A stretch of 63,946 bases of DNA, the filler included, from Sluysia triapertura (Eukaryota): assembly GCA_046118255.1 (NCBI GenBank). It is 5 parts of 5 records of this genome, joined end to end, with 100 filler letters (N's around TTAATTAATTAA, not from the genome) between each part and the next. Parts side by side here need not be neighbours in the genome. Positions count along the whole stretch, not along the records: positions 1 to 11,338 come from JBJNIA010185868.1; positions 11,439 to 24,281 come from JBJNIA010078489.1; positions 24,382 to 38,771 come from JBJNIA010261176.1; positions 38,872 to 52,768 come from JBJNIA010015420.1; positions 52,869 to 63,946 come from JBJNIA010189253.1. The stretch is one strand, 5' to 3'. This document shows, one piece after another, positions 5,831 through 57,300 of this stretch. The position numbers were made by a program, and so were the translations under genes. Under the pieces are notes generated by a model. The model did not search any database and was not told where the DNA came from. It saw only the letters and a program-made list of their open reading frames with translations. Within the stretch, counting starts at the first letter, position 1. Each line of letters begins with the position of its first letter.

Positions 5831-8604
5831 TTTTAATGGTTTAATAATGTTTGTTCTGATTGGATTGAAACGGAAATAAATACAGTAGAATTTTTATTAA
5901 TAAAATAATAATCTTTCGTTCGTACAACAGCAATTAAAACTTATTTTGTTCCTGTGTAATAATTGTGTATATTTGTCTACACAAAATATTATTTACGTAA
6001 TCAAAGCAATATATCAAGTAGTAAGTTTAATTAATATGTTTGAAAACTTTTAATTTTACATAGGAGTTATAATATTTAACTTAAAATCAAATTCTTTCGC
6101 GTTGGCTATTAAAGTCAATCATAAAATCTAATTAAAATATTATTTAGTTTCGATTGGGCTGTCAGACTCGATCAAGTTTAAATTAAGTATAAATTTGTTA
6201 AATTATTTTACCATTTTTATTAGTGTTCTTTAGTAACGTATTTCGCAACATTTGTTGTACATTACTATAGTTTTGACCTAAATATAACTGTTAAGGTATA
6301 TTATACAAATTCTTTATGTTGGGAATCGAGACGAGAGATACAGTAAATGCAGCACGAAAGAGAAAAGCTGTTGGAATAAATTAACATATAATGATATTAA
6401 ATGATTTTTTATTTTATAATGATTTTTATTTTATTTTAACAATTGGATATTTTATTTCATTAAACATTTGAATATTTTTAGTTATTTATTTATATATTTT
6501 GTTTTGTTTTATTTTATTTATTTTTATTTATTTATTTTATTTTAATATTATTTATTTTAATATTATTATTCATTAAAAATCATTACTATTATATCATAAT
6601 ACAAAACAAATAACAATTTTAAATTATTATTTTAATAAATTAAAAAATATACAAATCAAATCGTTCAAAACATAAACAAGGAAGTAAGAATTGTATATAA
6701 AGCCACATTTTAGAATTAAGGAAACACAATGCAGGATTAGAATTTCAGAAGTGAAGCAAAATTTTCCAAAAGCAAAAAATTTTTCCATGCATAGGTAACT
6801 TTTTATTACATAAGTTTTAACTATTCTAACCCTAAAAATGTAAAATATTAAAATACACTTAAACTTTATCATATTATCCTATACCGTAAACGGATAGGTT
6901 AAAATCACTTTAAAATTATAATTGCTTTGTATCTAAACAGTAAGTTTAAGATACTAAATTGATTATCGTTATTATTAGTATAAAACTAAGTTGTATCTGA
7001 TCGATTTATTTGTGAATAAACTTTAAGGTATCTATTGTTTTTTAAATCAATTTTATAAAATATAGTTCGTGTAAATCAGACCGTAACAGGCTGGTTTAAC
7101 CTCCAAGCTAGAGCGTAATTACTAAACAAAAAAGGAAAGAATAATCTCACGCTTATAATACTTTTAATCTCAACCTATAAGGAAATTAACTGTCTCATTC
7201 GTAGGTAATCACTGCCTCTTTTGCCTTAAAGATTAATTAGACTGTCGTCAGGTAGTGACGTAAATCGTCTCTAATTAGCCGAGCTCTCCTTCAGAAGATA
7301 ATTTTTTTAAGTAGGTTCTTTTTAGGAAAAGACACTTGCATTTATAAACTGCATTCGCCGTTCTGAATTCACTTCTTACACTGCAAATATATATACACGA
7401 TACTCACTTTACTTGCAACTACGCCAATTATAAGTCTTATATTGCAAGCGAACTCTGTTGATTTTATTTTTGCTTACAAGTTAGTTTAAGATAACAGGTT
7501 AAATTGTGGAAATCCTTCAACACTGACACAACTAATCTAATGTATACGCCACGTTAAATATTGAAGAAAATCTTCCCATATCTTCATATTGTGATGCTTA
7601 TTATTGAAGTTAAATTTATTGCACACGTTTAAGTAGCACATAACTATTGTTGTGTGATTAGTCTCTTTTGTTGAGTTTATTTAAGATTAAGAGTGGATGT
7701 AAAAGAATCGCTTGAGGGATGCTTAATGAATTCACGAGATTATTATTCGTTTTGCGCCTAATAGCAAATTTAACTTTTTCTTTGCTCTCGATGTGCATAT
7801 TAATTCTTAATTAATTAATTAATTAATAATGCATATTAATTATTTACGCTTATAAATTTCGACTTATTTTCATTTGTTTAACTATTTAAAACATTAATAA
7901 TAAATTTTCAAATTACTTTTTTATTTTATTTTCGACTATCTTTTTAAAAAATTTAAAAACCGGCTTAAGATCTTTCAAAAGCAAATAGCTATAATTTAAT
8001 CGGTCAGTTAATTCGAAAAGATATAACAAATATAAATTCAAACTATAATTTAATTTCATAAAATTCGAAATTAAATTCTGTTGATGGTAAATAGTGATAA
8101 AAATCAAAATTCGTATGTTTTTATTGATTATTATTACTAATACTGAAACATAAAACAGATTGGCGACATTTTATAATGCGTAATGATACTTTAAAAAATT
8201 CAGTAATCAAATGTTCGTTTCGGGTATACTTAGACATATTCTGTGTGGATTGGTCACTACTTTACATTCTAGACTTAGTGATAACTTTTTCTTCTCTGTA
8301 TGTGTTTAAATTTAGTTTCATAAATACATAAACCGCTATTGATCTTCGAATTAAAAATTTCAAATAAACATGTTTACATTCAAATGGCATATGTTGTAGT
8401 TAAATTTATCTTTTATTGACTATAAACTCATGAGATTTATACTGTCTAACGTTTTCATAGAGAAATTTTGAGACCAATAATTACTACGTCATGAACAAAC
8501 AAAGCTAATTACTTAACCGTTTTAATAGAAATTCTTAATTTTTTGTCCTAAATCATAATTTTTATTAAAAAATTAATTTATTAATTATCAAATTTTTATT
8601 TTTA

Positions 8605-10083
8605 GCATTTATTAAGAGCTCCTGCAGCATAGATATGAACGACAATCAATTTATCAATTTGATAACGAAATGCCACTAAATACTTCAAATAATCTACTTT
8701 AATAACTGGATTTGAATTAATTGGTCCATTTAAAGTGATTTGAATCAACAAATTCTATAGTTAATGTAACTTCTACTTTTTCAGTTCCATCTTTCGATGC
8801 AATAGTTGTGATAAGAAATAAAGTTGAATCTTTTAGTTTCCTATTTTCTACGGAATTTTTTGCTTACCGAGTGAGCAAATGTTGAATATACTGGCTAAAA
8901 TTTGTAGCAACTATACTTGGAAATAACGACAAAGTGATTTCAGTAATTCTCAAGCTGATCTGAATCAAGACTGAACATTTGAACCATCAATATCCAAATG
9001 GATATATTCATCTGGTCATCTTTAAATGTCTTGATCAGAGTGGCGAAATTCTATGTTTGGAATGATTATGTTTTCACATAACTGAGGCAAAGGCACATTT
9101 TCACCAAACAATTTTTGATGATGACCTTTTTGAGCAACCAAGTACAAAAAATCTAGAGATTAACTAAATAAATTGTCGTATCTTGACTCTGAATTACAAT
9201 TAAAAATTATTTTTAAAACAATCGAAATAAACATAGGTAAATATTCGGTAAATTCTTCGCCATACTTATTTTGATATAAACAATTTTACATATTTCTGTT
9301 TTAATTCCTTCTATAATACCTGGCATGTCACGACTAGAACCAACCAAAATATCATTTGATTAATTTAATAACTCATGAAATTTATTCATTCAGATTTTCA
9401 TATTGTCCTCAAAAAATTCTGGTAAATCTTGATGGTTAATAGGACGGAAAATTTCACAAATTAAATAAACAGAATTGGAATGAATGTCTAAAGCATTTTT
9501 GTCATTGTGATTTTCTAGAAATAATTGTAACGTCTGATTAATTTAACTTTTTAAAGGTTTTAAACTTTAAACTTTTAAACAGGTTTTAATTTCATCAGAA
9601 CATGCTTCAGTGCGATATCTTTTTTAAGACTCACAAGTTTGAAAAATACCATTAATTGTCATAATATTACCTTCTTTAAGTTTTATAACAATTGTTGGTA
9701 ATAAAGAATTCCACCTTCCTGAAAAGCATAACGCCCAATCGAACTAATAGCTTCCGATAATTGTTTTTGTATATTCACCTCACTATTTATTAACACAACT
9801 TCGAATATTTGTGATTTCATACAATATTTCTCCATTTATTTCTCCATTTCATACAATATTTATTATGTAGGATACATCATCATTATGTCTGTACCTATTA
9901 ACTAAGTTTTTAAATGTAATTGATACAGCTATTTTGTCGTTAATGTCAGAAGTCTTGGTAATAATTGCAGTATTGTAGCATACTGTTCTTGTCTTTCCAT
10001 AGCTTCAAACTTTTCCTCAGCGGCACGATTTTCAACTGGACTAAGAGTTAATTCCAATATTTGTGACAATGAATAACATCCAT
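8605..10083 (-). pseudogene. CSE1L: Exportin-2 (CSE1L/CAS) N-terminal half, intronless, frameshifted, 3'-truncated
   Basis: Collinear motifs from ATG 10083: LTLSPVENRAAEEKFE, IAVSITFKN, IQKQLSEAISSIGR, INGIFQT..KRYRTE, QDLPEFFEDNM, KYGEEF, CENIIIPNIEFR, EYIHLDIDGS, KDSTLFLIT, PVIKVDYLKY, VVHIYAAGAL. These follow the order of CSE1 family motifs. Many stops/indels; no introns seen. Confidence 0.9.
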
Positions 10084-10100
10084 TTTCTTTTTAAGTGGTT

Positions 10101-10253: not shown

Positions 10254-11267
10254 CTAAACAACAGTTAGAAAACATAAAATTACTAATTTCAGAAATAAAA
10301 TACGACAATAATTTTAATAATATTAAATAACCATGATAAATTTTGATAGTAAGATTGTGCTTGATTGTTAAATTGTATAAGATTATAAAAATTGTGTTTG
10401 AGTTTTGATTTGACATTTTGTGTTAAATTGTGTTGAAGCTTGTTCAAGATTTTATGTGTTGTGTTGTGTGGAGGTTTGTTATTATTGTGTTTACGATAAG
10501 AGTCCTTTTATCTGTAGCTCACAGTTTAGAACAAATAAATAATATGTTATGATTAATTCTTGCGAAAGTACAGTCATAACAGAAGCTATAAAACTGAATA
10601 GACCACGTTTTAATTGTAGCTTATCGCTATAATGACAATTAAAAATTAGATTATTTATGTTCTTTGAATTAAGGTGTTTATTAACTTTTAAACTAATTGA
10701 ATGGTTTAGTATGATTGCATTTAGAACTGAATATGACTTATGCGCATTCTTTTTACTTAAATTGTTACTAATGATTTAATGTCGGGTCGGATTTATTCCA
10801 CCTAAGTACCGAATTTAACAATTTTATTTTACTTGGCGGGCTTAATGTTATTCATTAATTTTAATGATTATTTCTTATTAGTTTTACGAATATTATAACA
10901 TTTATATAAAATACAAAGATTAGGTTCACACAAACAATTATTAATGAATCAAGATTATTATTTAGGAAAAATAATATCTCTTCTGTAACCAGGTGACATG
11001 ATAATTGATTCGTTAGGTCAGATTGATTTGTATCGCTAATCATCTATTCAATGTCATTATCTTTCATAGATTTTATTGTGTGAAAAACTATTGGGAAATT
11101 CTCCATCCAAACTATTACATTTTAAACAATGTTTAACAGTTTTGTATGACTTTAATATATCACATGATTTAATAATTTCTTTGTTTTCATATAGTTTGAT
11201 ATCCATTTGATACTATGATCAACATCTGTCAATTCTTTAATCTATAACTTTAGTTTTTGGTCTAAAA

Positions 11268-11338
11268 CAGTGGTGTCAAACCTTTTTGCTTTACGGGCCG
11301 CATGATTTGCCTCCGCGGGCCGCCACTTTGACACCACT
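11268..11338. mobile_element. hAT (Buster-type) mini-element or collapsed MITE
   Basis: TIRs CAGTGGTGTCAAA...TTTGACACCACT(G, lost in gap), internal gggccgc motifs, left flank gtcTAaaa fits an NNNTANNN 8-bp target. Confidence 0.75.
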
Positions 11339-11438: not shown

Positions 11439-11785
11439 ACGATCCCTCGTAACTTTTTCATATATTATCTAATCTTATACTCTAATTGTAGGTATCATTC
11501 TTCGAGGTATTCCTAAATACATTTTTATGGCTTCAGTCTTAAGATTGACTGCAAGCAAAGCATAAAGTATGAATGCAATAATGAAAGATGAATGTTGATT
11601 TTAAATTCTTTAATGTCATTATTGTATTTGGAGATTTTAAGATTAATTAAACTGATTTTAGTAATTTTATTCGGTATTTTAGTTGGCTTTCAGTTCTTAT
11701 TGATTTAATTATTTAATTTATTTAATTTAGTGCTTATACTTTCCTTAATAATAGGTATAACAAAATAATATGATCGTGTGATGAA

Positions 11786-12043
11786 TCAGTCATTTGCTTT
11801 TATTGTTTCATTAGCATTAAGTATCCAAGCGTATATAATTGAAAAGTTTGACTCAGGGTAATAATTTAACATGGTAGTTTGTTTCGGTGGAATTAATTCT
11901 AGAACTGTTTCCTTATCGGTCCCGTATCTTATTATAATTGAGTTTTTTGATAATGGATTAGTTACTTTAATTGGATCGATTTCAGTGATTATGGAACAGT
12001 CCATCCATTGTTTGATGAATTTATCATAGAATACATAAGGCAT
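11786..12043 (-). pseudogene. Continuation of the decayed compact ORF array, unknown product
   Basis: 85-aa ORF on the same strand directly downstream of 12204-12956, with stops in between. Confidence 0.35.
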
Positions 12044-12203
12044 TGTTTAAATCCAATAATATTGTGTATGTATTACTCGATTGTTATTTTTACTTGATAT
12101 AATTGAGATTCAAATAAATCTTCGCATTTTATGATCCAATATTTTGTAGTCTTATGTTGTGGAAGTAGTACATAACTTATTTAAGCAACAACTAAGAGAT
12201 AAA

Positions 12204-12956
12204 CTAACTAATTTGCTTATCCACAACTATTATTACGTCAGTCTTAGCTTGAATAGTTATTTGTATATTATTGTAAAACATTTTCCTACTTAACCTATTT
12301 ATGTTTAACTCAGATGAATCAATATTAGTTATTAAACAAATACATAAAAACACTGATGACATTTGTAATTCATTGTAATCCGTATTGTATTCATATATTG
12401 GTGATGTCATTATTGGCGGTAATGGTAGTCCTGGAGGAGGAGCATAAAATCTATTATTTCTTGGAATCGAATAATGATTATCATTATCGTCATTGGAATC
12501 AGAATTAGTATATTTGCATTTATTTATAATGAACATCATAATCATTAGTAAAGTTATTATTAATGCAATAATAAGTAGTGTTGCAGCAATTACCAAAATA
12601 ATTATTGACAGATCCTTTTTCAGTGTATCTATAATTGTAGTTGGCTTTTGAATTCCTTGTATAATAATTTTATCCCGATGTTGAATAAATATTATTATAT
12701 ATCTGTCTTCAGAAAGTAAATAATCTTTGCACATCGTTGCTGGATATTCTATATTAAGTAAAACAGGTTTGTGTAATTCCCATATACTAAAATTAAGTAT
12801 CGCCGGATTGATACATATGTAATGTGCTTTAATGTTCTTAGTTACCTTAATTTGTACTTTTGTATTAAAGTTATAAAAATCCAAGTATTTCGATTTGTAG
12901 ATTCTCTGTGACACATTCGTAATTGATATTAATGTTAGTAAGGTAAGTAACATCAT
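12204..12956 (-). CDS. Intronless type-I membrane-protein-like ORF of unknown family, probably viral/TE accessory and partly decayed
   Basis: 250-aa ORF: hydrophobic N-terminus (MMLLTLLTLISIT), ~95-aa ectodomain, long TM (LSIIILVIAATLLIIALIITLLMIMMFII), tail with Tyr/Pro motifs (HYSIP, YAPPPGLPLPP, IYEY), then a second signal-like segment (MSSVFLCICLIT). Confidence 0.45.
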   Translation of the reverse strand: MMLLTLLTLISITNVSQRIYKSKYLDFYNFNTKVQIKVTKNIKAHYICINPAILNFSIWELHKPVLLNIEYPATMCKDYLLSEDRYIIIFIQHRDKIIIQGIQKPTTIIDTLKKDLSIIILVIAATLLIIALIITLLMIMMFIINKCKYTNSDSNDDNDNHYSIPRNNRFYAPPPGLPLPPIMTSPIYEYNTDYNELQMSSVFLCICLITNIDSSELNINRLSRKMFYNNIQITIQAKTDVIIVVDKQIS

Positions 12957-14401
12957 ACTCGGTACCTATTATTATAACCCTATTACAAGTGATTATGTAG
13001 TAAAAGTAAATAGCATATTGATTATGGTAAAGATTGAGAGTGCAACTATTAAAACATTTTGTATATCTAATCAACTTTTCTTACTTATATTCTTACTTAG
13101 TTTGGTAGCAATATTCGTTATTTTGTTTATTGTAGTAGGTAATGCTGTACCTGTGCTTTCTTCTTAAAACTATCCATAAAATCTATTGTTACTGTCTTAT
13201 TGTAAAGTTTGAACACTATTATTGCGGTATATTGAATTGAATGCTGACATTTGAAAATATTGTCTTTATTATTAATGGTTCAAAATATTTGCAATATATA
13301 TCAAAATTATAATCAGGAATTTTGTTTTTATTATCAATTTCAGCTGTCCAAAATCTTTTGAAGGTATTTGACAGGAAGATGTCTTGTTTAGTATTAGTAT
13401 AATTTGTTAAATTTACTGGATAATGAGTTATCCTTGTTGTTAATTGAAATGGAAATATATATAAATGGAAATTATATAAATGAATCTATTATTTGGAATT
13501 CCTCTTATAAACATTATACTGCTATCAGTAGTATTATTATCATTATCATTATTATCTATTCCTATACCCGAAGTTGAAGAAACCGTGGTATCACACTGTG
13601 GAGGTCAATATACATCTTGCTTTTAACAAAATATTAATGTTTTAACTTATTTTTAATTTTTTATTAAACAAATTTAAAACGTTGATTAAATAAAAATATT
13701 TTAACTTTAATTTTATAACAATTAACAAAAAACAAAAATTTTTAATCAACAAATTAGGCCTAATGCCTTTAAGGAATAAACAATTTAAATAAAACACAAA
13801 ATATGATATTTTATTTAAAACACTGTAAAATAACACAAAGAAATAAATAACATTTACGTCATTGTAGATGAAGGATCTAGAGAGCTGAGAAATTAAGTTA
13901 ATTATGGGATAATTAATTGAAGGCTTTACTGTGTTCATAGCATGAATCTTATTTATAAATAAAATTGAAAAATATAAAATCATTAGGTTTCGCAGTATTT
14001 ATATTATATTTCACATAATTCGACATGTCATGTATTGGTAACAAATTTTGACAACATGGCTTAGTAAATGTTTGATTTCCATTTGGTAATTTTACTTTTG
14101 TTCAATTGAAGTTTATTAGAACTCGGCCATATGAGTGGATAATATAAAGGAATCATTATACAAGTCATTATTACAAAAATCAAAACCAAGGTTTGTACTG
14201 CTTTCATCATTAACGTAACAATTTCATAAATTTCATGGTTAACGTAGTAATAAAAATTGATTTTTTTACCATGTTTATTTTTTATTAATTTAATTTTTTA
14301 GTTATTATTAAACAATTTTTAATAAATATTAATCAAATAAGATTGTGTTATTTAAAATAATGTCTAAGCTTTAGTTATATATAATTAAATTTTGCATGAA
14401 A

Positions 14402-14915
14402 CTAATTTAAAAAATATAGTGATAATTCTTTGGCAAAAATATCTTCTTGATTTTCGAGACTCTTAAAAGGATTTACATCAAAATTTGTTTTCAGCGCTAT
14501 ATAATATTCAAAAAAATCTGTTCCAAGTCCATCAATCAAAATTTTATACTTTTTAAGCATATCTAAAGATTCTTCTAAAGATGTTGGTTGATTCTTGCAA
14601 TGACCGCCATTTCTTGGTTCAATTAATGCTAATTTACGTCGTAGACCATCCATTCCAGCTTCTAGCATAGCAGCAATTACTAAATAAATATTAGCTCTGC
14701 CGGATACAATGCGATTCTCAATAAAATTATGATTATGCGTTTCTGCGCTAGTTTTAACTCGATAACCTACTGTTCTATCTTCATAATTCCAACTAATTTT
14801 ATTTGGTGCCCACGATGCTTTGACAATACGACGATAATAGTTGAATGTTGGATTAAAGAAATCCGTTAATGCTTCGGAATGCTCGATTAATCCAGCTAAA
14901 AGTGTTGACCAGTTT
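14402..14915 (-). pseudogene. Glutamine synthetase type I / lengsin-like C-terminal fragment
   Basis: (KTGQHF)LAGLIEHSEALTDFFNPTFNYYRRIVKASWAPNKISWNYEDRTVGYRV...IENRIVSGRANIYLVIAAMLEAGMDGLRRKL...PTSLEESLDML...GLGTDFFEYYIALK to stop at 14402. This is the GS catalytic-domain C-half; the N-half is absent and a 1-nt deletion lies near 14900. Confidence 0.9.
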
Positions 14916-14916
14916 A

Positions 14917-15774
14917 TGCACAGAACATTTTCTCGATGATTGTAATACAAACAAAACTTGTATTATACATTGTACAATTTCCAAAGATGATTTTGCTATA
15001 AACAAAATACAAATACTTTTTTCAGCATTTTGATAGACTTGGCTAAGTTCAACAGGTTCTGCTGACGAAATTAGCAAAAATAAATTGTAAGCTATCACTC
15101 CACAAAGGTCAATTAAAAGAAGATTATCATCAAGTGCTTCTGTTAATTGCCTAAAATGTAATATTCGCATTTTGTAAAAACCAATTATTGTTACGACTGC
15201 ACTACTGGTTAGTAGAATTCATTCAGATATATGATAGACAATAACAGCTTTATATTTGTCTCTGCGAAACAATATAAATATAGCTAAGCCCACCAAGCTT
15301 GCCAAGAAAAACAAAAGTCCAACAAAAAGACCTTTGTGAGATTTATGACATTTCGGATTGCGAAATTTGATTGGTGGATTATTTGTATGATTTTATGTTT
15401 ATAGGAACTTTTCTATGTAAAGAATGATCATCCGAATTAATACCAGCATGAGTATCACTGTAAATTAATTTATCTTGATATATGTTTTTATAGTTAAGCG
15501 AACGTAAAGATGGCGACAAACTTTCTGTATACATTGTTTGAAAAGTTTGTTTTTTAAAGTAATTTGATTTAATAATTGCTTGTATAATTACCATCGAGTT
15601 TTTGAAGCATCTTATAGAGAATAGCTGCACATATCAGACTGTATTCTATAGCACAAGGAAATAAATATGGTGATACGAGATAAGCAATTTGATTTGAACA
15701 TGTAATTTGAGAAAAATTAGAATGATAACCAGTATCGTTTTGATAATGTAATACTACAAATGAATAATGAATAT
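14917..15774 (-). pseudogene. OTOP: Otopetrin proton-channel internal fragment
   Basis: SPYLFPCAIEYSLICAAILYKM (otopetrin FPCxIEYSL motif), CHKSHKGLFVGLL, LDDNLLLI, SLEIVQCIIQVLFVLQSSRK. In-frame TGA at 15219-15221 plus frameshifts. Starts at acceptor 'ttattttag' (15775-15776). Confidence 0.88.
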
Positions 15775-16899
15775 CTAAAATAATTATTTATTATTAATTT
15801 TTACAATATAAACAAATTTAAAATAAATAATAAAAATAATAAATAATAATTAAATAACAATAATAAATAATAATAGTATTACAAAAGGATATCTAAATAA
15901 TTTTTGACGAGGGAGTTATTAATATATTTATTCTAACAATAAATGAAAATGTAAAGTGAGTCCATCTACGATCCTAGGCTTACATACTTAGGTCAGACCG
16001 TAGGATTGAGGTTTGATAATTTACTTAATTTTAGAAATGTTAACTAAGATACTTATGTGTCCGTGGTTAGTGGTGATAGTAGTAGTACTATAATTTATTA
16101 AACATATGTTGCTTAGATGCTATGGGATATGTATTATGACCGATTAGTATGTAATAATGTATTATTGTAATAATCTATTACAATAATCTATTGTAATAAT
16201 GTAAAGTAAATAGAGATTAAAAAAATAGTTGTTATTGTTATTGTAATTATTTTATTAACTTTTTTATTATTATTTTAAAGTATTATTAAAGTATTGTTAT
16301 TTTCAAATATTATTAAAATATTATTATTCTAAAGGTATTTATTAAATATATTATTATTAAAGACAATTATTATTAATCATTAAATATTATTAATCTAGTG
16401 TAATTTAAACTTATAAGTATTATAATCGATGACCTAATACGTAGAGAGATGATAAATGGTGAACGCTTTGTTACTTAGTCACAAAAAATTTTGTACACAT
16501 TGTTTTTAAAAGTTTAGTGTTATCATTAATTGTTACCATTATTCACTGTTATATATTTATTTGATTTTTCATTAAAACGTTGATAAACGAAAATATACTC
16601 AACTTATAATAAATTCGACTTATCTAATCATTGAACTATAATTTAGAAAAACATCTTATTTTACAGTTGTCCAAACAAATTTAATCGTTATTTAGTTAAT
16701 TAAGGCATACTTTTGAAAAAGATAATTTAAAAAATTTAATTTAATATTTATCAAACTTCTATTTAGTAAAATTTCGTTACGGATTTAATTTATTTAATCA
16801 AAAACATTGAAGTACATATATAATAATATTAATATTTAGAATTTATATATCATATTTGTATATATCCTATTTTAACATTTTGTATATAATTTTGAAAGA

Positions 16900-17850
16900 T
16901 CCTCTAGTTTAAAATTCAAAATAATCAATTCAATAACATTATTACATTATTTAACATTTTACATCGTTACCTTTTCAAAATTTATCAAAACCTTTTTCAT
17001 ATTTTACATTGTTTTAGATCCATTAAAACCATTTTTCATACTTCAAAACATTTTAAATTCACAATGTTTCAACATCCAAATAATACTTACATTCAAACCA
17101 TTAATGTACATTTCAAATCTCATTTAAAACATGTTATCTCACAATCCTACAGTATTTGAATCACAATTTACATCTTAAATTATTGTAGAAAACATACTAA
17201 AATTAATTCAAAACAATTTAAATTCACAATCCTTCAACAATCAATTTTCAACACCATAGAAAAACATTATAATCACATTTTAAATTTATTTTTGAAAAAA
17301 TATTAATGGAATTTTAGTTATTTTTATGTAAAGAAGTAGAACAAGTAAAAGAAAGTTCATGTAACATAAAATTAAAAGAATTATGCATTTTAATTATATT
17401 CTTTTTATTTTATTATAATTATTATTCTTATTTATTTATTTATTTATTCATTCTTCTTATCATTATTATTATTTTAGTACATTTATTATTATACCATTTT
17501 TATTGCCATAATCATTATTATTTTTAGATTAAATGGCTTTGTTGATTTTAGTTACTATAAAATAAATTAAACGGAATCTGTCATTGCCAAACAAATATTC
17601 ACACATGCACATATATAGTTGGAAGTGTGTTTCCACAGGCAATCAATATAACTAACTTTGAACACTTTTAATTTACTGCACATACAAGCATACAAGGTTA
17701 CAATTTAATCTATGATAATATAGCATTTGGTTTGGCATCCAATCAAGTCCATCTCTACGTTGTAATTCTACTTATCGGGTTTGACGTCCAATCATCATTG
17801 ATATCATTATGTTATTCAGTTAAAAATTAAAGATTCTGAAAGGATTTTTA
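16900..17850 (+). repeat. Copy of C/A-rich interspersed element with promoter-like 3' module
   Basis: 17050-17150 aligns by eye with 21217-21330 ('cattttaaat.cacaat...tactta.at..aaaccatta...gtaca.ttcaaat.t.atttaaaacat'). Followed by TGTCA, two CCAATC and a TATA-like 'catataag' near 17895. Confidence 0.6.
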
Positions 17851-18305: not shown

Positions 18306-18619
18306 AGCTGTATTATGTCTTCTGTTGCAAGTACAAGCATCATCACAAACATCATCACAACCACCATCGCTATCACCATTTTTCACTCGTCATCGTATAT
18401 GTGCAAATTGACATAGAATTGGTACCAATGTGAACACTGGAGCTTTCTCATCTCCTTCAAATTCTCCGCATATTGTGGCAAGTAGTAGTGTTCTTAATAC
18501 ACCAATATTAAGACAGAGAATACATTATGATTCAGATTTCGTATCTCCTCCGAGTACGAAAAGAAATATTACAATTGTTAGATCTGCCCAATCAGAAGAT
18601 GATGATGAATATAATAATA
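18306..18619 (+). pseudogene. Orphan exon-like coding fragment (Ser/Pro-rich, unknown parent)
   Basis: Acceptor 'tttttcaacag' (ends 18305) and donor 'gtatgt' (18620). One frame is open across the exon except a TGA at 18409 (RHRICAN*HRIG, plausibly CGA>TGA). Confidence 0.45.
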
Positions 18620-19766
18620 GTATGTAAACTTTTTTTGATGCTTTTAATAGTTTCTGATATGTTGCTAATATCTTTATATAAACAATTTGTATATGTAATG
18701 AACCAGCATTTATACTTAGAATCTTAAATGTATTATTATCAATCATTATAGCATTATTATAAATTACCGTAGCTGAATACCACACATGTGATTGGTGAAA
18801 CTAATGTATTTAGTGTCAGAGATTGTGGAATAATTCAGTTAAAAAATGTTTCGTGTTATCCACATTTTAACGGACTCGCAAATTTTAAATATATTATTTT
18901 AATTATTAGTGATTAATATTTGACGAATACATAACTAAGTATTGTATTTAGTAATTCTTGTTGGTAATTGTAAGATCCTCTAGTGGATTTAAATATAAAT
19001 ATGGATTATATAGGATTTATTTTCAAATTAAGTGAATCTTTTCTATTTCCAATAATTATCTCAATTACAATAATAATAATAATTATTATTTTATTGATGG
19101 TTTCAATTTTTTCTATGAATAGTATTTATTTTAAATTTTCTAACAAAACTAATTTTAATTTCAACTACGTAATTTAAAATATTAAATCGATAAGCTTGTT
19201 CAATATATTTTTACTCGTCAAATGAGTTTATCAAATTTAATAATTCAGAAACATGTTAAATTAAATTATACTTAATCGTGTTTTCTATGAAAATTAATTT
19301 AAATTATGTTGATGGTTTATATAATTTATACTTTCTTAAGGAAATTTCCATTTCTCGTGTCATTTTACTAATAAAAAATAGGTAATAAGTGTTGAATACA
19401 TGATAATAATTCAAAATTTGTCATATTTTTAAAGCAAATAAATACATTAAATCCATTATTTATACTTTTAAATCACATTTTAAAATTAATTAAACGTTTC
19501 AATTTTTCAGTTTAAACTTTACAATATTACATTTATCTATTCGGTCTTTAATGTAGCGATTTTCTCTATTACTGAGATTAATTTTATAACTCGATTATGA
19601 ATTTTTAATGTAACGTCTTTTGCTTTCATTTGTATTTTTAACCGTACTTTCTTGCTTATATTAAACGATCTTAAGGTTTATTTTAGGAATTTAATGTTTT
19701 TAATGGATTTTTTCTATTAAATTTAGTGAATTTAAAGGATCGCGATGACGTTGATGGCAAACTAAC

Positions 19767-21120
19767 ATCACTTCCCATTTATAAAAGTTGTCCACAAATT
19801 TTTAAAGAGAATTAAGATTGTAGAAAATATTTCGCGGATTTAGTATTTATTGTTGGTAAATATGTGTACATTGTTATACTATCATGCAATAATACTATAT
19901 TATGATATCAACAAATATCGTAATTATTAGGTAAACCAGTATAGCGTGAGTGTTACTTAAATCATTCAAATTGTACTGGTCCACGTCGAAATATAGGGTA
20001 TTAGTTGGCCGAATTCATCCAAATTGACTCCTGGAGGTAAATGTTTCGGATTTGTTTGTCTAACTAGAGAGCCTGGATATTAGTAGTTTGGTTTGTAGAA
20101 TTCGTCGTGGAATTGATCTGGAGTATTGGACTGTTTGGAGTTGACAAGTTGTGGGAGAAGAGGAAAAGAGGCGGGGTTTAGTATAAGATGGGCTGAGCAT
20201 GTAGGGGAATTAAAAAAGAAAAAGAAAGAGTACCAGACAAGTTTTGAGGAAGGAAAGATGGCATTTTGAACGAGATCTATACAAGGCATCTTAAGCAGAA
20301 AATGGTAAAGTAATTTCAGCACGTGTTCGTTCTAGTAAAAGAATCAGCGAAAGAGAAAGAAATAAGATGCGTGCTAGTGAGATTTATTATCCCTCTCAAC
20401 CAACCATAAAGAATATTAATGTGTGGTAACAAGAAACCAAGAATTTGTTGTGTAATGAGATCATTCAAAAGCTTCTAATATTTTCTATATCCACGCTGAT
20501 GAAAGATTTTCATCATCTAACCCATGTATTTCCTTACAAATATTTTGAACTCGAACTCGCTTTGTCTATGGTGTGGAGTCTTTAGTGATATGGCATAAAA
20601 CCTAACTGAATAATTTGGTAATTATTATTCACGTCCAAAACATGGTGAAAATCAACAAATATCAACCTACTTTCGTCAAAAACAGGAAGTGATGGAATGT
20701 GTGTCTATGTCAAGCATTCCCGCACTTGTACGTATGTGGAATATAAAGTAGTTAAGCACGATTTGGACTTCAGAGGAACAGGAAAAAGTACTGTAAAAGT
20801 TGTGGAATATTCGTCGGCCTCTATTCTGATTTAGCAAGATTTGGTAATCTTATCAAGTTTTAATCAGGAATATCAATAAACTCGAAAGAAGAGAGAAGAT
20901 CATTGACAATAACCGAAGGAAATGCGGATTGCAAGCTAAATAGGTAGGTTGCAAAGTTTTCGTCAATTTCTGATTTAAGAGGATTATGAGTGGATTTAGA
21001 ATTTAAGAATAAAGTAGAATGAATATCCTTCTTACAAAACCTGTCAATACTCCCATAAAAAGACTTGATTTGGGTAGAAATTCTAGAAATATACAATGTA
21101 CGAAGGAAGAGATAACACAA
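19767..21120 (-). mobile_element. 3' part of an LTR retroelement: decayed env-like ORF, polypurine tract and start of 3' LTR
   Basis: ~1.2 kb higher-GC broken ORF ending in a hydrophobic segment (ISTWTSTI*MI*VTLTLYWFT), then 'aaatgggaagtga' (19780-19768) directly followed by TGTTAG (19767), a typical Ty3/gypsy PPT-LTR junction. Confidence 0.45.
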
Positions 21121-21129: not shown

Positions 21130-22068
21130 AAATTAGTAAGTTATTTTACATTTCTTAACATTCCACATTTTACCTTTCAAGATTCAATTCATTAAACATT
21201 TTTTTACACTTTATAGCATTTTAAATCCACAATCTCATAACATTAAAATTATACTTAGATCTAAAACCATTAAACGTACACTTCAAATTTAATTTAAAAC
21301 ATTTCAAGTTCACAGTCCTTCAACATTCACATCATTTATATTATTGAAAAACTTTAAATTTTCATTTTAAAATCATTTTAAACATCGTAATCAAAATGGA
21401 ATTTCTTTAACATCTTTAACTACGTTATTATTATTTTTTACTTATACATAATGCTTTCTAAAATATAATATGAATTAAAGATATGTAAAGAATTTTAAAA
21501 GAATTTGTAGTCATTAAATATTTCAAAGAAGATTTATGGTTTAAAGCAAAGTATAATTAAAAAGAATTAAAAGATGTATTTAAATAATAAAAAAAGTTTA
21601 TTTTTTTAATATTTTCATTTTTGTTTTTATTATTATTTTATTTTTTTATTAATTTCATTTTATTATTATTAAACTTATTTTTTATTATTACAATTATTAT
21701 CCTTAACATTTTCATTATCATTATTATCAATATTAATCATTGTTATTTGCACACAAAAAGTTAATTTTATTTCTGTCAATCTCGACAGTTCATTTTGTAC
21801 AAACATTGAATTGCCTGTCACCATTTCATAATCACTACCACATTAGTTTTAAAAACTACATGGTGACAGGCATGCATTTTAGTCATTGTTTTAATTGTGC
21901 AGCGTTTCAATTTCCCTGGATTGGGGTTGGTTGAATCAGTGTTCATTCTGCTCTTGTGCATTGATTCTGACTCACCAATCAATCATTGGCAATTCGTGGT
22001 GTTATTCAATAATTATTAAAAATTAGTTCACAAATTTAAAAGTTAAAAAATTTTATTGATTTTTTCAG
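21130..22068 (+). repeat. Copy of C/A-rich element with double-hairpin promoter-like module
   Basis: Similar to 16900-17850. Perfect 13-bp IR tgcctgtcaccat (21812-21824)/atggtgacaggca (21860-21872); second IR gattgg..gaatcagtg/cattgattc..ccaatc (21919-21980); acceptor 'ttttttcag' near 22068. Confidence 0.6.
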
Positions 22069-22178
22069 TTTAATCAGAGTAAAACAGAAATTATCAATTA
22101 GTGAACAATTTTTTGTTCTTACACTTAATGAATTTTATAAACGATAACTATCAATTGAATTATGCAAGTAGAACAAAT

Positions 22179-22689: not shown

Positions 22690-22780
22690 AGTAGCAACAG
22701 AGTCGGGATATGTCAATCCACTGCAGACGATTTTGGAATATGTCGTAGATTTGGCTATTCATGCCCGTACAGCCATAATA
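22690..22780 (+). pseudogene. CCCH-type zinc-finger-like fragment
   Basis: GICQSTADDFGICRRFGYSCPYSH (C-x9-C-x6-C-x3-H). Confidence 0.4.
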
Positions 22781-42700: not shown

Positions 42701-42794
42701 TATTTGCTTCGATAATTATCCAAATTTAGCGGGATCAAATGAACTTTTTAAGTGAATTGCACCACATGAAAATTTAAATTTAAAATACACAAAC

Positions 42795-43050
42795 CCAATT
42801 CATTGTTACAAAGAACTTGAAGACCTTCGCGTAAATAAATCGCACCAGAAGGATCACCAAAATAACTCGGCGCATTTGAAACAATTGCAGATGTTACCAT
42901 CAATGCAGATGTTGAGTCATCGTATGTAAGTTTATTTCGTTTTTTATGTTTTTTCTCTCGTTTCATTGATGACGTATTCATAATAGAATTCGGTTGACTA
43001 CTAGAAGTACTAGCACTATCTTCACTGCGAGCATCTTGATCTTCATTGTG

Positions 43051-43112
<62 letters not shown>

Positions 43113-43258
43113 TACTATGTCTTTTTGTTTTATTATTAGTAGTATCCGGTACTGAATCTTGAATTTGAGATGCTGTCATTAGTGTTGAATGGCGTTGCTC
43201 ATCATTTGAAAGGCCTGATTCATCTGGTGGAGGTTTCGCATCTTTTTTTGGCCTTAAT
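42795..43258 (-). CDS. CLIP4: CLIP3/CLIP4-like CAP-Gly protein, exon 4 (poly-Asn linker and start of third CAP-Gly)
   Basis: Acceptor ttattttattag, phase-2 join with exon 3 (QK|LRPKK). Ends YLREGLQVLCNNELG at donor gtttgt, resembling the start of the last CLIP4 CAP-Gly (LHEGSQVL..NEM). Confidence 0.8.
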
Positions 43259-43779
43259 CTAATAAAATAATCAAAAGTTTAGGATATAATTATCGTTTTA
43301 ATAGATAATTGTTCATTAAAAATAAGTAGAATTTGGATAATTTATTAAAAACAAATAAGTTTTGTTTTGTTTTTCAAAAATTATACAACAATATTTTTTA
43401 TTTGTTTATTTGTTAATTAAGATAATCAAAAATTACAAATATATAATTGCTGTATTATTTTTGCTATACAAAAAATTGGTAATTATTTTGCATACTGATA
43501 CACTGATTGTCTATCTTATTTAGAGAATACAGGAACTTCATCAAAAGATGCACAAAAGCACCACTATTAAAGCAAGCTAAATAGATGTCTGTAGATATTT
43601 GTAAACTCAGTACAAAAGAGTAGTTTGTCTTTATTCTATTAATGACATTAACATATTTATAAACTAAAGCGATTCATAAAATTAGTCCAATTGTAATACA
43701 ATTACACCATTTACATTTTATATGCGATAAAAACAAACACATGTATTTAGAAAAAAATGATTAAGCACTATAAACTTAC

Positions 43780-44155
43780 TTTTGTAATCTCGAATGGGGA
43801 GCAAACACACCTTTATTTGTCGGACAAGTAAAATATCTCACTCCAGCAACTTCACCGTCATTTCTACCAACTGCTTTATCAAGCTCGATACCAAACCAAA
43901 GCCCGGGAGAAAATTTAGCAGGTCCGATAAACCTGATAACACCTTTACGTTGCCCAGCGACAAGTACGCGATCACCAATTTGTAAATTAGTATTATTAAC
44001 AATGGAAATTGAAGTTGCAGTTGCAGACGTAGGTACAGAAATTGGACTATTACGCAATCCTGAATCTACACGTGCTACTACTCCCGATACATCTACTGTA
44101 CCATGATGAACAATAACTGATGCACCCCGAGGTTCCAGTGCATGTCGAGGTGTTC
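43780..44155 (-). CDS. CLIP4: CLIP3/CLIP4-like CAP-Gly protein, exon 3 (second CAP-Gly)
   Basis: LQIGDRVLVAGQRKGVIRFIGPAKFSPGLWFGIELDKAVGRNDGEVAGVRYFTCPTNKGVFAP. Acceptor aaattag (phase 1), donor gtaagt. Confidence 0.92.
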
Positions 44156-44396
44156 CTAATTTTAAAAGTATTATCTAAACTTAATATTTTAATGACGGAA
44201 ATACCTATCAAAACATTATAAATACATTTCAAAAATTATCATATTAAATCTATCTGTATAAATAAGTACAAAATACAAATACAAAATACTATTTCAAAAT
44301 ACAAATAGTAAAAGTAAATAAATTGAAACATCATAAAGCTATAGTACCATATAAGCGAATTCATAAAAATAAACATTTAACTATGAATATACTTAC

Positions 44397-44730
44397 CAGG
44401 CCTTCTTCCTAGACTGTTTGTATTTGTTCTCGAAGCTGGTTTAAGTCGTGTAACTGGACAAAATACACCTTCACTTTCTGGTGCGACGCAAGTAAAATAT
44501 CGAACACCATCTACCATACCTTTATTCCGACCTTGTCCTCTACCTACTTCAATTCCAGCCCAAACACCGTCTGCAAATTCTACAGGACCGCAGTACCTCA
44601 AAATACCCTCTCGACACTCTTCTACATTTTGATTATTAGATTGTGGATAATTCTCTGACGGTAATGGTGACGATGATTGACCACTAGAGCTTGTTATTTG
44701 AACCCTATCTCCAATATTCATTCCTAAAGC
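44397..44730 (-). CDS. CLIP4: CLIP3/CLIP4-like CAP-Gly protein, exon 2 (first CAP-Gly)
   Basis: ALGMNIGDRV...GILRYCGPVEFADGVWAGIEV..GQGRNKGMVDGVRYFTC..GVFCPV. Acceptor tcttttag, donor gtaagt. Confidence 0.92.
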
Positions 44731-44838: not shown

Positions 44839-45559
44839 TTTAAATTTAATCAGTAAAATAATTTATCATTTTTAATTATTATTAATTAAAAATTATTAAA
44901 ATAATGCTTTAGTATCAATTTAAAATGAGATTACATATAGTCAATATAAATTCAAAATTTAATAAATAACAATTAAATTCAAAGTGAAAATGTAGAAATA
45001 ATTATTTTAAAGTTTGATTCTATAAAGTTAATTTGAAATTAGAATTTATAAATATTAAATTTTACTGTTATAGTCAAAAAATTATCCTAAAATGAGAATT
45101 AATAATAACAATATGAAATCAAATTTTAATATCATAAAACTCGATCAAAATTAAGTTAACGTAAAGATTCATACGTTATGATTCACATGTTATGGTTACG
45201 ATGAAATATGATTTATATATTTTTTTCTATATCAATTCTTGTGTTTTATTATTAGTGGTCAATCATGCTATACTAGATAAATGAATTAGTATACATATGA
45301 ATGGCCTCGCAGCCAAATCTAACTTCATGAAGTTATTTTATATTTAATGATTATGATTATAATTGTGGTGACCAACTCATTCATTCAAAATTTTACACTA
45401 CATAAAACACAAAACAACCACACAATTACATAACAGTTTAATATATTAAACCTTAATAATTTGAAATTTAAAATATAACCAACAATGAAATTTCTATAAA
45501 AACAATTTTAACTCTTTACTATAACTCTTTTTCTCACTCACTTCTTCACAACTCGTTAC

Positions 45560-46400
45560 TACCTATCCTACAAAAAGAAATATTGGAAGCACTTGAAGAA
45601 TAACGAGCTAAATGCATATATAGATAACGTAAAAGATATGCGCATTTATGTTAGGCGTTCAAAATTTCAACCAAAACAAAAGGAAGCTTTATATAAGTTA
45701 TGGGATTTAATAATTCGATTGCTCGTTTTGAAGACGAAAATTCAGAATTTAATACCGAAGCGAGTTTTATTAAACTTAGCCCGTGCGTTGTCAAAAAATA
45801 GTTCAGGTGTTTTAAATTGTCTTTCTAATGACAAAAAATGTTTAGAAGTCTTGGATGTTAAAGAAAAATACATAGAAAACTCAAAAACAAAATCTCAAAA
45901 CGATAATATTTTGACTTTCTTTGGGAAACGTTATGATATTAATAATCAAGTTATAGAACCATTAAAAAATTTAAAAATGTCATGATACTTTTTAAAAACT
46001 TGTCAAGAACATATTAAATGTTTTTGCAGATTACCCTTATTTTGACAAAGATTTATATTTTAACTACAATCCGATTTCTGGTAAATCTGAGCAGAATTAG
46101 TCGATTACTCAGAAAGAAGCTGTAACAGACACTTCAGATAGTATTGAAAGAGTGATGAAACTCCTGATGCGGTTATGAAAATTAATGATGCTGATTAAAA
46201 GCAATTGGGAAAAGTAGAAAATAAGAAGCCATCAATATGGAATCAAAATTACGACAGAAAAGAGATGAAGCAACTCAATAACCTCAGGCCATTCGATTAT
46301 AAAGCAACTGTGACTTATATGAGGCAGAAGATAAACGGAAATTCTACTGTAAAACTACAAATTGACGTAGACCTAGTTTGAAAAAAAGGTGAATCTAGTG
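45560..46400 (+). pseudogene. Decayed intronless ORF, unknown parent
   Basis: 130-aa ORF continuing in broken frames to ~46400, preceded by a C/A-rich leader (45365-45560) resembling those of other cassettes. Confidence 0.4.
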
Positions 46401-47269
46401 AGTATAACCAAATAGCCAAAATAAAAATTTTCTTAAAATTATATTTTACTGCAACGTATAATGTTGGTGTATATTTTATATTTATAGGCCACTAAAATTA
46501 ATACCTTTCACAACAAAAATTATCACACACTAATCATTAACATCCTTATTTCAAGAGTGTTATAAAGTTATTCAGACAGTTATTCAAAAGTGCTATAAAA
46601 GTTTATATAGACATTGTAATGTAAACATTGATTGAAATTTTTTCAGGGTTTTTAGTAAAAAAATTAGATTTGAAACATTAATCAAAAACTAATTCATAGT
46701 TTTATGAAAATTCATGTTAGAGATATTTACTTAACTACACTAAAGTTCTTTATTCAAAGTCTCAATCTAAATATCCTTACCTTTTTGTCAAACAAGATAT
46801 GTGTGCAAGATTTGCTTCATTTCAAAAATAGTCTTAATTACAATGACACAAGTTACACAATCCATTTTTTCTTTGTGGATTCTTTCGCATAGCACCTAGT
46901 ACTACATTCAAAATCAATTTGGTATTAGTTCATATTGGACGCTCGACCATCAAAATTCTTAATGTTAGCAATTTTTCTATTATATATATATATATATATA
47001 TATGAAATTGGATATATATTTTATTATCCCAAATCTTATAAATCGTATAAATCTTTTGACTTAAGATTTTTGTAATTTAGAAGTGCATAAATTTGAAATT
47101 AATATTGATATTAGAATTAGAACGTAAATATCGTTTGATAAACTTAATTAATAAATCTCTTTCAAATAATAATCTTTATAAATAATTTAAACTATTATTC
47201 AATAAAACTAACATCATCCACAATTATTATTACTAATATTTCTATATTATCTCATTTTTTGCAAATCAA

Positions 47270-54482: not shown

Positions 54483-54544
<62 letters not shown>

Positions 54545-55426
54545 GAAATTTAAGTTTCGGAATATAAATCTACCAAAATCATCTATCTACCAGATTTTAA
54601 TGCAAGAATGTAATTTAAATTCAAATATTTAATTTAATATTTTTTAATTAAACATTAATTTTGATATTGAATATTGAAATAATTGATAACTTTTTTGTAG
54701 TTTGTAACATTGTTATGATAAAGAATTGTCATTTTTAATAATTTTTAATCATTTTTATATTTGTAATGTTTATTTAGTAAAACAATCACTATATGATTTA
54801 TGTGTTAATGTTAAATTATGACTAAAATTTCGATAGATTCTAGAAATAGCTGTTTTAGTGTTTTTTTAATGTATTGATTTTCATATAGATTTTACAACAA
54901 TACTTTTCATATTTATACAACAATTGAATATATTTCTCTACGATATGGCACATTGTTTTGTGTCAAATGTGGAATTTGAAGAAAAATTAAAGTTTTCTTA
55001 ATAAAAACATATTTCAGTTTTGTTTATTTTAATATGTTTAAGTGTAACATGCAAGCGAAATTATTGTTTGTTGTAGATAATTTCTTCGAAAGAAAGTATT
55101 TCCACGGTTTAAAACAAAATGATTAAATGTACTATATTATACACTGGCTGAGTTGGTGTAGATGCATTTATGACAAATAGTTATGTAACTTAACTGCACT
55201 TTATTTAGATTTACAGTAATTAAGAAAATAAGTTAGTTGCTCTAATATTGCCAACATAAGGTTATGTTCAATATATGTGTATTAATACCAATGTATGAAC
55301 AAAGCATTAGAATTTGAATCCATTATAAGAGGTTCGTATTAAGATATAATGTGAAAAGTACAAACATATAAAACTTTATGTATTTACCTCTTGCATGATG
55401 TATTTGCTTAATATATGAAAAACATC

Positions 55427-56600
55427 TAGTGGCCAACACTCATAATTAAAATCCGTCAAAAATTCATTCTTTGTTCACAGATTTAATGTCACTAAAATTC
55501 AAATTTTAAAATAATCACACTTTTCACTTACAAACTACACAAACACCATAAAATAACATTCGATATTTATAACACCTCATCAACTCACATATATCAACAA
55601 TTTAATTAACATTTCAACCATCCATAGCATAACAAACTTCGACATTTAACCTCGAACAATTCACAACATTTACTCATAAGATATTTGATCAAACAAATTA
55701 TAATCACAATATAAAGTACACAAGTCATAAACATAACAACATTATTCAACAACGCCAACAAGTACCTTAGAGGCATATATCATTTCTATCTAAAACCTTA
55801 ATCAACAACACCGAGCTAAATCCACTTCACAGACTTATATTCATCACTCACAACTACTCTCAATAACATTATGGTTTATTAAAATGTATTTTGTAATCGC
55901 TATTCAAATTAAAATAACTTCTACCTTTCAATAAGCATTTAAACCATTAAATCTTGTTTTCAAACTATAAACCTTCAATAAGTTTCAATAAATGCTTCTA
56001 ACATTCGTTATTTCACTTACAATCTAAACCATTACAACTGTTAAAAACAAATTTAAGATAACTTTAAAACATTCATTATCGCACTGTGAAGCAACTACAA
56101 ATGAAACATCACATATACCTTGTTGCCGTTGCTCCTTCACAGTTTATTAATTGATTTTGCTCCTTTTTATTCGATTTATATGTTATAGAAAGAAAAGAAA
56201 TATAAAGAATAAGATCATGTTAATGTTTATAGAAAGACTTTTAAAGATTTATGCTGTTTTTAACTTTATAACAATAATAATAACAATGATCTTATCAATC
56301 TTGTTATTGTTATTGTTGTTATTATTATCTTTGCACTTTAAATAAAATTTAATCATTGCTGTTCAAACCGGTTGCTGCCATCACCAACGATGACAGTCTA
56401 TGTATAATTTTCATTAGACTGTCAACGTTGATGACGGTCAGTAATCAGTCATCAGTTATTATTTCTCTGCACGTTAATCTATCTACCAAATGTCACCCAA
56501 TCAGAGTACAGCATTACAAAATACTAATTACTTACTTTCCAATGCTCTGATTGGGTAGACAAAATTAGACAGAGTTAAGCAAAAATAGTCACAATTAAAA
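55427..56600 (+). repeat. Interspersed C/A-rich repeat family, copy 3, ending in double-hairpin module
   Basis: The 5' ~230 bp match copies 1 and 2. Hairpins at 56370-56446 (TGACAG arms) and 56495-56556 (acccaatcagag/ctctgattgggt). Confidence 0.7.
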
Positions 56601-57158
56601 ATTTTGTGTAAAAAAATTAAAAATTTTGTGTTACAATTAAAAGCAGTATCATTAAAAAATTATAAAGTAATATAATAGTATCGTATTCAAAAAAAAATTT
56701 CCAGACGCAATTAAAAAATTATACTTTTATTTTCCCAAACTTATTAAATTAAAACTCAATAACTAAATAATTAAAAATCTCGATATATTCTTTATATTAT
56801 CACAAGATTACAACCTAAATATATAAATAACTCTTTATAATAATGAAAATACAAATTATACTTTATAACAATGATCGTACAAATTATTCTTTATAACAAT
56901 TTAAGTCATTATTCAATGACAAATATTAACTAGAGTGACACAACTTATTTAAATTTTCGGACCCGTTAACGCAAAATATAAACACTAAGAAAAATATTAC
57001 TAACCCTTGTTCTAAAAAGAAAATAGTTTATTTGAGTCAATTACTAAAGAAATAAATTTAGTATCGCCGTTATCCACAGATGAACTAAAGCAGCTTCCCT
57101 ACAGTTGAAAAGTTATTCTATTTTTCTTTACTCGGCTTTGTTTCTGTTTTTATTGCAG

Positions 57159-57300
57159 AAATTTAACTGTTTATGTAACAGTTTTATGGCAATTAGTGAA
57201 ATTAAAAATCAGAAATCGAACAAGACAGAAATTAAAGCTGTCTACTTTCTTTTAGTCGGAAATAAGCCGACTTATTTCACCGATTAAATGTTGACAGCTA
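57159..57300 (+). pseudogene. Ras-family small GTPase fragment (G4 region, RERG/RASL-like)
   Basis: After acceptor 'tttttattgcag' (57158): NSFMAISEIKNQ...VYFLLVGNK then, allowing a 1-nt deletion, ADLFHRLNVD, i.e. the LVGNKxDL motif. Confidence 0.5.

Follow-up and report, generated by a model that had tools for sequence, protein, structure and literature searches.

Capture and fusion of host messenger RNA (mRNA) pieces by retroelements is already known in animals as a rare event, and sense-fused fragments of unrelated host genes are present in the window analysed here, a stretch of 63,946 nucleotides (nt; G+C ~25%) of Sluysia triapertura (GCA_046118255.1) consisting of five unlinked contigs joined by N-spacers at 11339, 24282, 38772 and 52769. 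In the sections cited here, Tan et al. 2016 report 15 polymorphic cases of chimeric retrocopies mediated by long terminal repeat (LTR) elements in Drosophila, and for mosquito, zebrafish and chicken 3-10 datable retrocopies per species (PMC5131818), HINE/DINE-1 elements are described as having subterminal inverted repeats of 12-15 bp, T-rich ends and empty sites (PMC4067079), the planarian element Burro exceeds 30 kb and has multi-kb LTRs and a gag-env-pol polyprotein with MATH/BIR/BCL2 domains (PMC6431247), and in rotifers the third open reading frames (ORF3s) of LTR elements code, among others, for small membrane proteins made from spliced messages (PMC5408684). We find four firm cassettes, i.e. 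DNAI4 with CSE1L (A), otopetrin with glutamine synthetase (GS; B), RBFOX with a CCCH finger (R) and a GT31 galactosyltransferase piece with coding-like DNA (G), both partner genes being named in A and B. This likely represents a known gene-shuffling process that is unusually frequent here, with no one shared carrier element shown.

The cassettes resemble the retrocopies of Tan et al. in their truncation at both ends, sense fusion, absence of a poly(A) tail and of a target-site duplication (TSD) and possible signs of secondary amplification, whereas in the portions of that account cited the flanks are recognisable paired-LTR elements with measured microsimilarity, neither of which is shown here; the density of 3-4 cassettes in 64 kb is to be set against the counts given there (PMC5131818). 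Serial capture behind a promoter-like leader, together with a microsatellite, central repeats and a hairpin, recalls Helibats (PMC4224331) and DINE-1/HINE (PMC4067079) as far as these texts outline them, but in the window no hairpin+CTRR end, Rep/helicase or TSD-bearing nested retrocopy was found. Pack-MULEs and Pack-TIRs likewise hold host gene fragments within mobile DNA; according to the extracts cited (PMC8277862, PMC6431247) these are captured at the DNA level between terminal inverted repeats (TIRs), with a median of 224 bp for Pack-TIRs, whereas here no TIR pair is seen and pieces of up to 1.5 kb are intron-free. Burro, a Gypsy element (PMC6431247), and the bdelloid ORF3 LTR elements (PMC5408684) are comparable as high-copy retroelements of AT-rich invertebrates with host-derived domains or membrane-protein ORFs, their extra domains being, in the descriptions cited, intact and family-wide, in contrast to the broken and locus-specific cargo here. 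No Burro-type domain (MATH/BIR/BCL2) was found in Pfam scans of the window, which covered, out of 490 open frames of at least 38 codons, the 300 that look most like protein, and 50 further frames, mostly with stops read as X.

Searches identified four of the five gene-piece loci named in the original prediction, which had been made from the sequence alone, i.e. DNAI/CSE1L, otopetrin/GS, RBFOX/CCCH and GT31, and in these the pieces are, as claimed, co-oriented and meet within coding sequence, at most a few bases apart (Table 1). The pieces are truncated at both ends and lie among repeats, and pieces of cassette B have several related copies. In cassette A an intron-like tract with TTTAG precedes the DNAI4-type piece (PDB matches IC138, E 9.8e-7, and DNAI4, E 1.8e-4). 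Four stretches of the adjoining CSE1L piece match Pfam Cse1 (E 9.6e-9, 5.4e-9, 4.4e-3 and 4.4e-4), and the piece is colinear with yeast Cse1 residues 48-230 (E 1.3e-9), placing its beginning within a few codons of the N-terminus (~codon 4); it stops near residue 500, carries stops and frameshifts and extends over 1,485 nt without an intron gap. In cassette B the otopetrin piece, matched in three Pfam stretches (E 1.1e-9, 9.8e-8 and 3.8e-12) over 860 nt without an intron gap, abuts out of frame a GS piece of 513 nt which comprises the last 169 codons, without internal stop or intron gap.

The RBFOX RRM piece of cassette R has one stop and a 5-residue deletion and is in frame with a stretch of no identity leading to the CCCH finger (spacing C-x9-C-x6-C-x3-H; Pfam UNK-like, E 1.2e-3; best PDB match Unkempt, weak at E 0.24); the finger more probably belongs to a repeated unit, as its resident part, than to the genes captured from the host. 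In vertebrates the RBFOX RRM includes a 93-nt exon flanked by two introns, as stated in the part of the source cited (PMC3575530), and the piece runs uninterrupted through both edges of this exon, borders which are vertebrate ones and may not hold in this animal. In cassette G the GT31 exon ends inside the domain, at profile position 126 of 195. The 98-codon frame upstream of the candidate intron has no Pfam match, carries a hydrophobic anchor-like segment and reaches a stop three codons before the donor; nine other C/A-rich blocks have opposite-strand open frames of at most 26-42 codons. Of 793 acceptor-like sites, 333 have a donor word this near, corresponding to ~14% in phase by chance.

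Table 1. Positions of cassette pieces, leaders and neighbouring features, counted along the whole window
Feature	Position	Strand	Evidence
DNAI4/WDR78-type axonemal dynein intermediate chain fragment, 5' piece of A	10253-10090	-	PDB search
Decayed CSE1L/exportin-2 coding sequence, 3' piece of A, 3'-truncated	10089-8605	-	Pfam, PDB, frames
Otopetrin coding fragment, 5' piece of B, broken	15774-14915	-	Pfam, profile 160-369 of 434
Type-I GS C-terminal part including stop codon, 3' piece of B	14914-14402	-	Pfam E 7.3e-34, homologues
RBFOX RRM, 5' piece of R	22170-22390	+	PDB E 1.4e-22
In-frame stretch of no identity and Unkempt-like CCCH finger, R	22391-22800	+	Pfam, PDB
98-codon frame followed by a candidate 64-nt GT-AG intron in phase 0 (49313-49250), G	49619-49250	-	Frame analysis
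GT31 galactosyltransferase exon, G	49249-48638	-	Pfam E 2.1e-13; 204 codons without stop
Broken coding-like DNA, 3' part of G, no Pfam match	48630-47500	-	Pfam scan
Ser/Pro-rich coding-like stretch after strong acceptor, no Pfam match	18306-18630	+	Acceptor rule
Short piece after strong acceptor, Ras-like G4 look-alike	57159-57300	+	Acceptor rule; no significant match
Leader family 1, copy 1: C/A-rich block, ~83-nt subrepeats, purine block, T-rich microsatellite	16950-17560	+
Leader family 1, copy 2, with two hairpins, CCAAT word and acceptor at 22069	21140-22070	+	Homology, folds
Copy of leader family 2 without identified cargo; 5' edge sharp and LTR-like (TGTAG)	26460-26750	-	Homology
Leader family 2 copy ending at contig end	38872-39059	-	Homology
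Leader family 2 copy (55425-55706), then C/A-rich DNA, two hairpins, CCAAT words	55425-56650	+	Homology, folds
Very high-copy repeat downstream of B	11439-13630	-	Summed depth
Orphan ORF in high-copy repeat	12965-12207	-	Hydropathy; one strong transmembrane segment
CLIP3/4-type resident gene with CAP-Gly domains	44730-42751	-	Pfam and matches, GT-AG introns

The region occurs in one public run, no RNA data set being listed as containing it. Depth and copy data, taken from the contigs of this run, cover positions 11439-15790, to which 3,198 contigs matched at 80% likeness. Summed depth, which does not equal copy number, amounts to 495-60,036 over 11439-13628, 332-3,623 over 13629-14358 and 49-129 over 14359-15380 within the cargo, and runs unbroken over the otopetrin/GS junction (49-80). 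Contigs matching the region exactly reach depths of 6-7, and a contig of depth 79 matches otopetrin at 15137-15412 (276 nt) with 9 other letters. Among the differences in the otopetrin and GS cargo, read from the 40 best-supported of 531 rows, 4 of 15 are silent, which fits neutral drift of cargo copies. This pattern suggests that a few neutrally drifting copies of the B cargo pieces may adjoin a very abundant element of the same orientation, and at least this one cargo seems to have been amplified, the copies being seen per piece and not across the junction. Another contig, 605 nt long and of depth 15, agrees with GS over the final 298 nt alone (86%) and continues upstream with 204 nt that are unlike; it weakly resembles a parental GS last exon with its intron and may equally be another copy of the element.

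The orphan ORF within the high-copy repeat gave no match among 1.84 billion representatives, Atlas scores did not exceed 0.86, and neither the metagenome contigs nor the frame upstream of it showed a relative. It is possible that this ORF is an accessory or envelope-like retroelement gene. We additionally observed that it has a short hydrophobic start and a Tyr/Pro-rich tail, and that the broken frame immediately upstream holds a second hydrophobic segment.

Flanks were compared by self-BLAST and by 462 shuffled comparisons among 22 flank segments, and the leaders sort into two families not detectably related to each other. The family-1 copies (16950-17560 and 21140-21750), preceding the 18306 stretch and RBFOX, are 76% identical over 137 nt (E 4e-18, z 25) and colinear over ~600 nt; cassette B lies head-to-head with the first of them. 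The family-2 copy at 55425-55706 is 72-84% identical to the other two in self-BLAST, and the sharp 5' edge of the family reads TGTAG in two of three copies; in comparisons of the 55425-55706 copy with family 1, shuffled sequences scored as well in 40 and 102 of 400 cases and nhmmer gave no cross-match. Of the three loci thought to share a C/A-rich plus hairpin module, those at 16.95 and 21.14 kb are indeed homologous, whereas the one at 55.4 kb belongs to the second family; at 55.7-56.6 kb a C/A block, hairpins and CCAAT follow one another as in family 1, the sequence itself not being shared. Hairpins are significant at 21.8 kb (z -4.3), 56.4 kb (z -7.1; 56366-56449) and 56.5 kb (z -6.3; 56495-56556), copy 2 of family 1 being followed by two, at 21812-21872 and 21915-21995; those at 17.6-17.8 kb are not significant (z 0.4 and 0.2), and the hairpins share no homology. 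Cassettes A, B and G have neither leader family upstream in sense, and the C/A-rich block preceding A matches neither family nor the other segments compared. The gag-like downstream remnant reported at several loci is, for 13.6-14.0 versus 23.2-23.6 kb, at chance level, as 373 and 132 of 400 DNA shuffles and 54 of 100 protein shuffles score as well.

Among further observations on these flanks, the same 12-mer occurs at 16897, where a family-1 leader starts, and 2.1 kb downstream at 18973(+). There is weak DNA similarity between 55950-56075(+) and ~46570-46680(-), reached by none of 400 shuffles (score 38, shuffle maximum 36) in one of 16 pairs tested; the latter segment is possibly a leader remnant pointing into the coding-like stretch at 45.5-46.4 kb.

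The fifth locus named in the original prediction, a Ras piece at 57159-57300, gave no Pfam or PDB match and contains only a frameshifted G-N-K-x-D-L look-alike of what we take to be a Ras-like G4 motif, the match not being significant. Neither did Pfam and database searches provide an identity for the supposed gene pieces at 18306, 36580 and 45560 (ORF 45512-45982: no database match); 18630-18900(+), following the Ser/Pro-rich stretch, reads like a fragment of a membrane protein and is perhaps a further fused piece, without a Pfam match. The splice acceptor said to precede the pieces was detected by a strict rule at four of the eight starts named (DNAI, GT31, 57159 and 18306) and not at otopetrin (TTTAG with a weak tract), the RBFOX start, 36580 and 45560, a strict acceptor within 35 nt having a chance of 16-19%; the starts without identity were probably chosen for their acceptor. 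Instead of one cassette per 7-8 kb, the four firm ones in 64 kb amount to one per 16 kb, and host-derived or coding-like cargo makes up 5,396 of 63,946 nt, ~8% of the window. Overall, the observation is thereby partly confirmed and its first interpretation partly supported: capture by mobile DNA would fit the sense-fused, intron-free fragments that occur in repeat DNA at three loci and the one cargo that is seemingly amplified, whereas no single element emerges, and the idea of one specific family with shared flanks is not supported in this window in view of the two unrelated leader families, the cassettes A, B and G with neither in sense, the chance-level remnant, the probably resident CCCH piece and the intron that the GT31 locus seems to keep. 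The caution that the contigs may not be adjacent is borne out.

We see about an even chance that the cassettes arose by template-switch capture of host mRNAs by LTR-type retroelements of several families, followed by passive amplification. According to this model, host mRNAs would be packaged together with the RNA of an LTR-type element, whose reverse transcriptase would jump between templates and thereby join gene pieces in sense, and the chimeras, themselves non-autonomous, would afterwards be recopied as passengers of at least two element families; the acceptor ahead of some cargoes might be supplied by the element, as it is in spliced ORF3 messages. That an RNA route, template switching and LTR-type carriers are involved is our inference. 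Pieces cut inside coding sequence, sense fusion, absence of tail and TSD and apparent secondary copies fit the template-switch anatomy of Tan et al.; since a search for paired LTRs gave none, we do not assign the cassettes to the LTR-mediated chimeric retrocopies. Cassettes A, B and R have no internal intron gap and may have lost introns of the parent genes, the resident CLIP3/4 gene by comparison having GT-AG introns between exons of ~350-530 nt; the uninterrupted RBFOX RRM, the depth steps around B, the sharp TGTAG edge of family 2 and, weakly, the 605-nt GS contig also count in favour of the model. The CSE1L, otopetrin, DNAI4, RBFOX and GT31 pieces are 3'-truncated, and GS keeps its stop without a tail above background. 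At the cargo edges the best A-rich tails reach 11-15 of 20 against a background median of 13, none lying above background, and no convincing TSD is present at the cargo junctions, decay and AT richness weakening both tests.

Several points weigh against this model. Around the cassettes there is no direct-repeat (LTR) pair in the window, the contigs of 11-14 kb possibly cutting units; the frames scanned contain no reverse transcriptase, integrase or gag domain, and no clear primer-binding site or polypurine tract was found. On both sides of cassettes B and G, though off the junctions, there are shared words of 11 and 12 nt composed of A and T alone (background 95th percentile 10). The GT31 locus seems, judged from its reading frames, to keep a 64-nt in-phase intron, contradicting one RNA route for all; if retained, the acceptor there would belong to the parent gene, and the locus may be a DNA-level copy instead of an RNA-derived one. 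No contig among the best 8 of 3,345 pieces bridges the otopetrin/GS junction, and the shared orientation of cassette B and the high-copy repeat has a chance of 1 in 2. Family 2 adjoins no identified cargo. Family 1, seen in two copies, is without defined ends, and the subrepeats, the microsatellite and the hairpin in it would also fit Helentron derivatives.

The same evidence has to be read in the light of other explanations. A single joint element family, combining a promoter-like leader, its own acceptor and a resident Unkempt-like CCCH exon, might sample the host transcriptome at a fixed slot, yielding one chimera per 15-20 kb genome-wide and transcripts that feed gene-directed small RNAs like the pseudogene-like 'Spread' PIWI-interacting RNA (piRNA) clusters of planarians; we regard this as unlikely. 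Also unlikely are rolling-circle elements (Helitron/Helentron derivatives) with a captured promoter, which would collect retroposed mRNAs and DNA pieces serially and then amplify like bat Helibats. The leader anatomy (subrepeats, microsatellite, hairpin) does resemble DINE-1/HINE in the description cited (PMC4067079), and capture of the Helibat type, comprising promoters, intron-bearing exons and nested retrogenes in the passages cited (PMC4224331), would cover the intron-free cargo as well as the intron-keeping GT31. However, the two sites in the window with a hairpin and CTRR before T are both at 3.3 kb and none is near a leader or cassette, no Rep/helicase domain was found in the frames scanned, which non-autonomous copies do not need, family-2 edges read CTAC on the other strand in two of three copies, and nested retrocopies should carry TSDs and tails, none of which are seen. 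Self-BLAST gave no TIR pair around the cassettes, the best (longest) 25 of 2,465 inverted pairs all being microsatellites or spacers, and Rfam gave no matches in the window, so that there is no hammerhead-type Penelope end at the gathering score.

A model without any mobile carrier, in which a multicopy host transcription unit with promoter, intron and CCCH exon served as landing site for retrocopies made by long interspersed elements (LINEs) and spread by segmental duplication, appears quite unlikely to us. It would agree with the frame that RBFOX shares with the stretch up to the CCCH finger, downstream of a promoter-like leader, and with a second weak C-P-Y-x-H trace at 50202 (E 0.03), jingwei-type chimeric genes being a parallel; cassettes A and B nevertheless lack a CCCH finger and a family-1 leader in sense, and LINE priming at poly(A) misfits two-gene junctions inside coding sequence and the tailless 3' truncation of CSE1L. 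Slightly less probable still is a mixed set with no common process, in which scraps of unrelated pseudogenes, duplicates made at the DNA level and fill-ins from repair happen to lie among repeats. The flanks differing among cassettes, the apparent GT31 intron, the contrast of stop-free GS and GT31 pieces with the heavily decayed CSE1L and a chance of 1 in 8 for co-orientation in three firm loci are in line with such a set, but independent insertions would rarely abut so closely in coding sequence, which is seen twice with both genes identified, and the captured coding DNA takes up 5,396 bases of the window. That the junctions are misassemblies is highly improbable: short contigs ending in repeats and the unbridged B junction would allow it, while the continuous depth over that junction, the age and decay of the pieces and three sense-joined cases on different contigs speak against it.

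The literature listings searched showed no description of such a density in flatworms, subscription journals and supplements, which may bear on this, lying outside the search. If the cargo share of 8% holds genome-wide, exon shuffling would approach the scale of plant Pack-MULEs and Helitrons, gene annotation would be confused, and a concrete candidate source of gene-matching piRNAs, as the cited part of a preprint treats them (bioRxiv 10.64898/2026.01.28.702291), would be at hand.

Near cassette A, broken coding-like frames of no identity at 10900-11270(-) may be another cargo piece, and a retained upstream DNAI4 exon suspected at 10748-10590 was not supported on testing; at the contig end, 11269-11338, a GC-rich inverted repeat is probably a small inverted-repeat element. 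An 84-codon frame and possibly an intron precede the C-P-Y-x-H trace at 50202(+), which is similar to how the CCCH finger ends at 22762. A look-alike of a tRNA-Leu primer site at 26455 was rejected: it departs from the motif by one mismatch and could be part of coding DNA.

The resident CLIP3/4-type gene, whose exons of ~350-530 nt are separated by GT-AG introns and include a long poly-asparagine run (42751-44730(-)), matches animals, trematodes and molluscs included, and an unnamed protein at 60%. A tree of its exons (18 rows; 17 of 79 matches used) groups it with the unnamed protein (98/95), the trematode link being unsettled; judged from the match lists, the host is likely a flatworm. The sole trace of a mobilising enzyme in the frames scanned is a piggyBac-like remnant at ~30935-32221. 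It carries TTAA at either end, has short inverted termini and still shows the zinc finger of a transposase (Pfam E 9e-7). The higher-GC segment 2300-4100(-), with broken frames and no useful Pfam match, presumably resembles a DNA transposase remnant. Diverged copies of a broken ORF (39% identity, E 3e-5) are located on different contigs at 20328-20474(-) and 28705-28851(-), neither these nor ORF 28944-28564 having a database match. A third repeat family is present at 57561-57939, 59313-59641 and 60834-61699 (77-78% identity), one copy being split by ~1.4 kb containing a perfect 44-nt palindrome (59024-59067) and four TTAGGG-type repeats (58938-58962).

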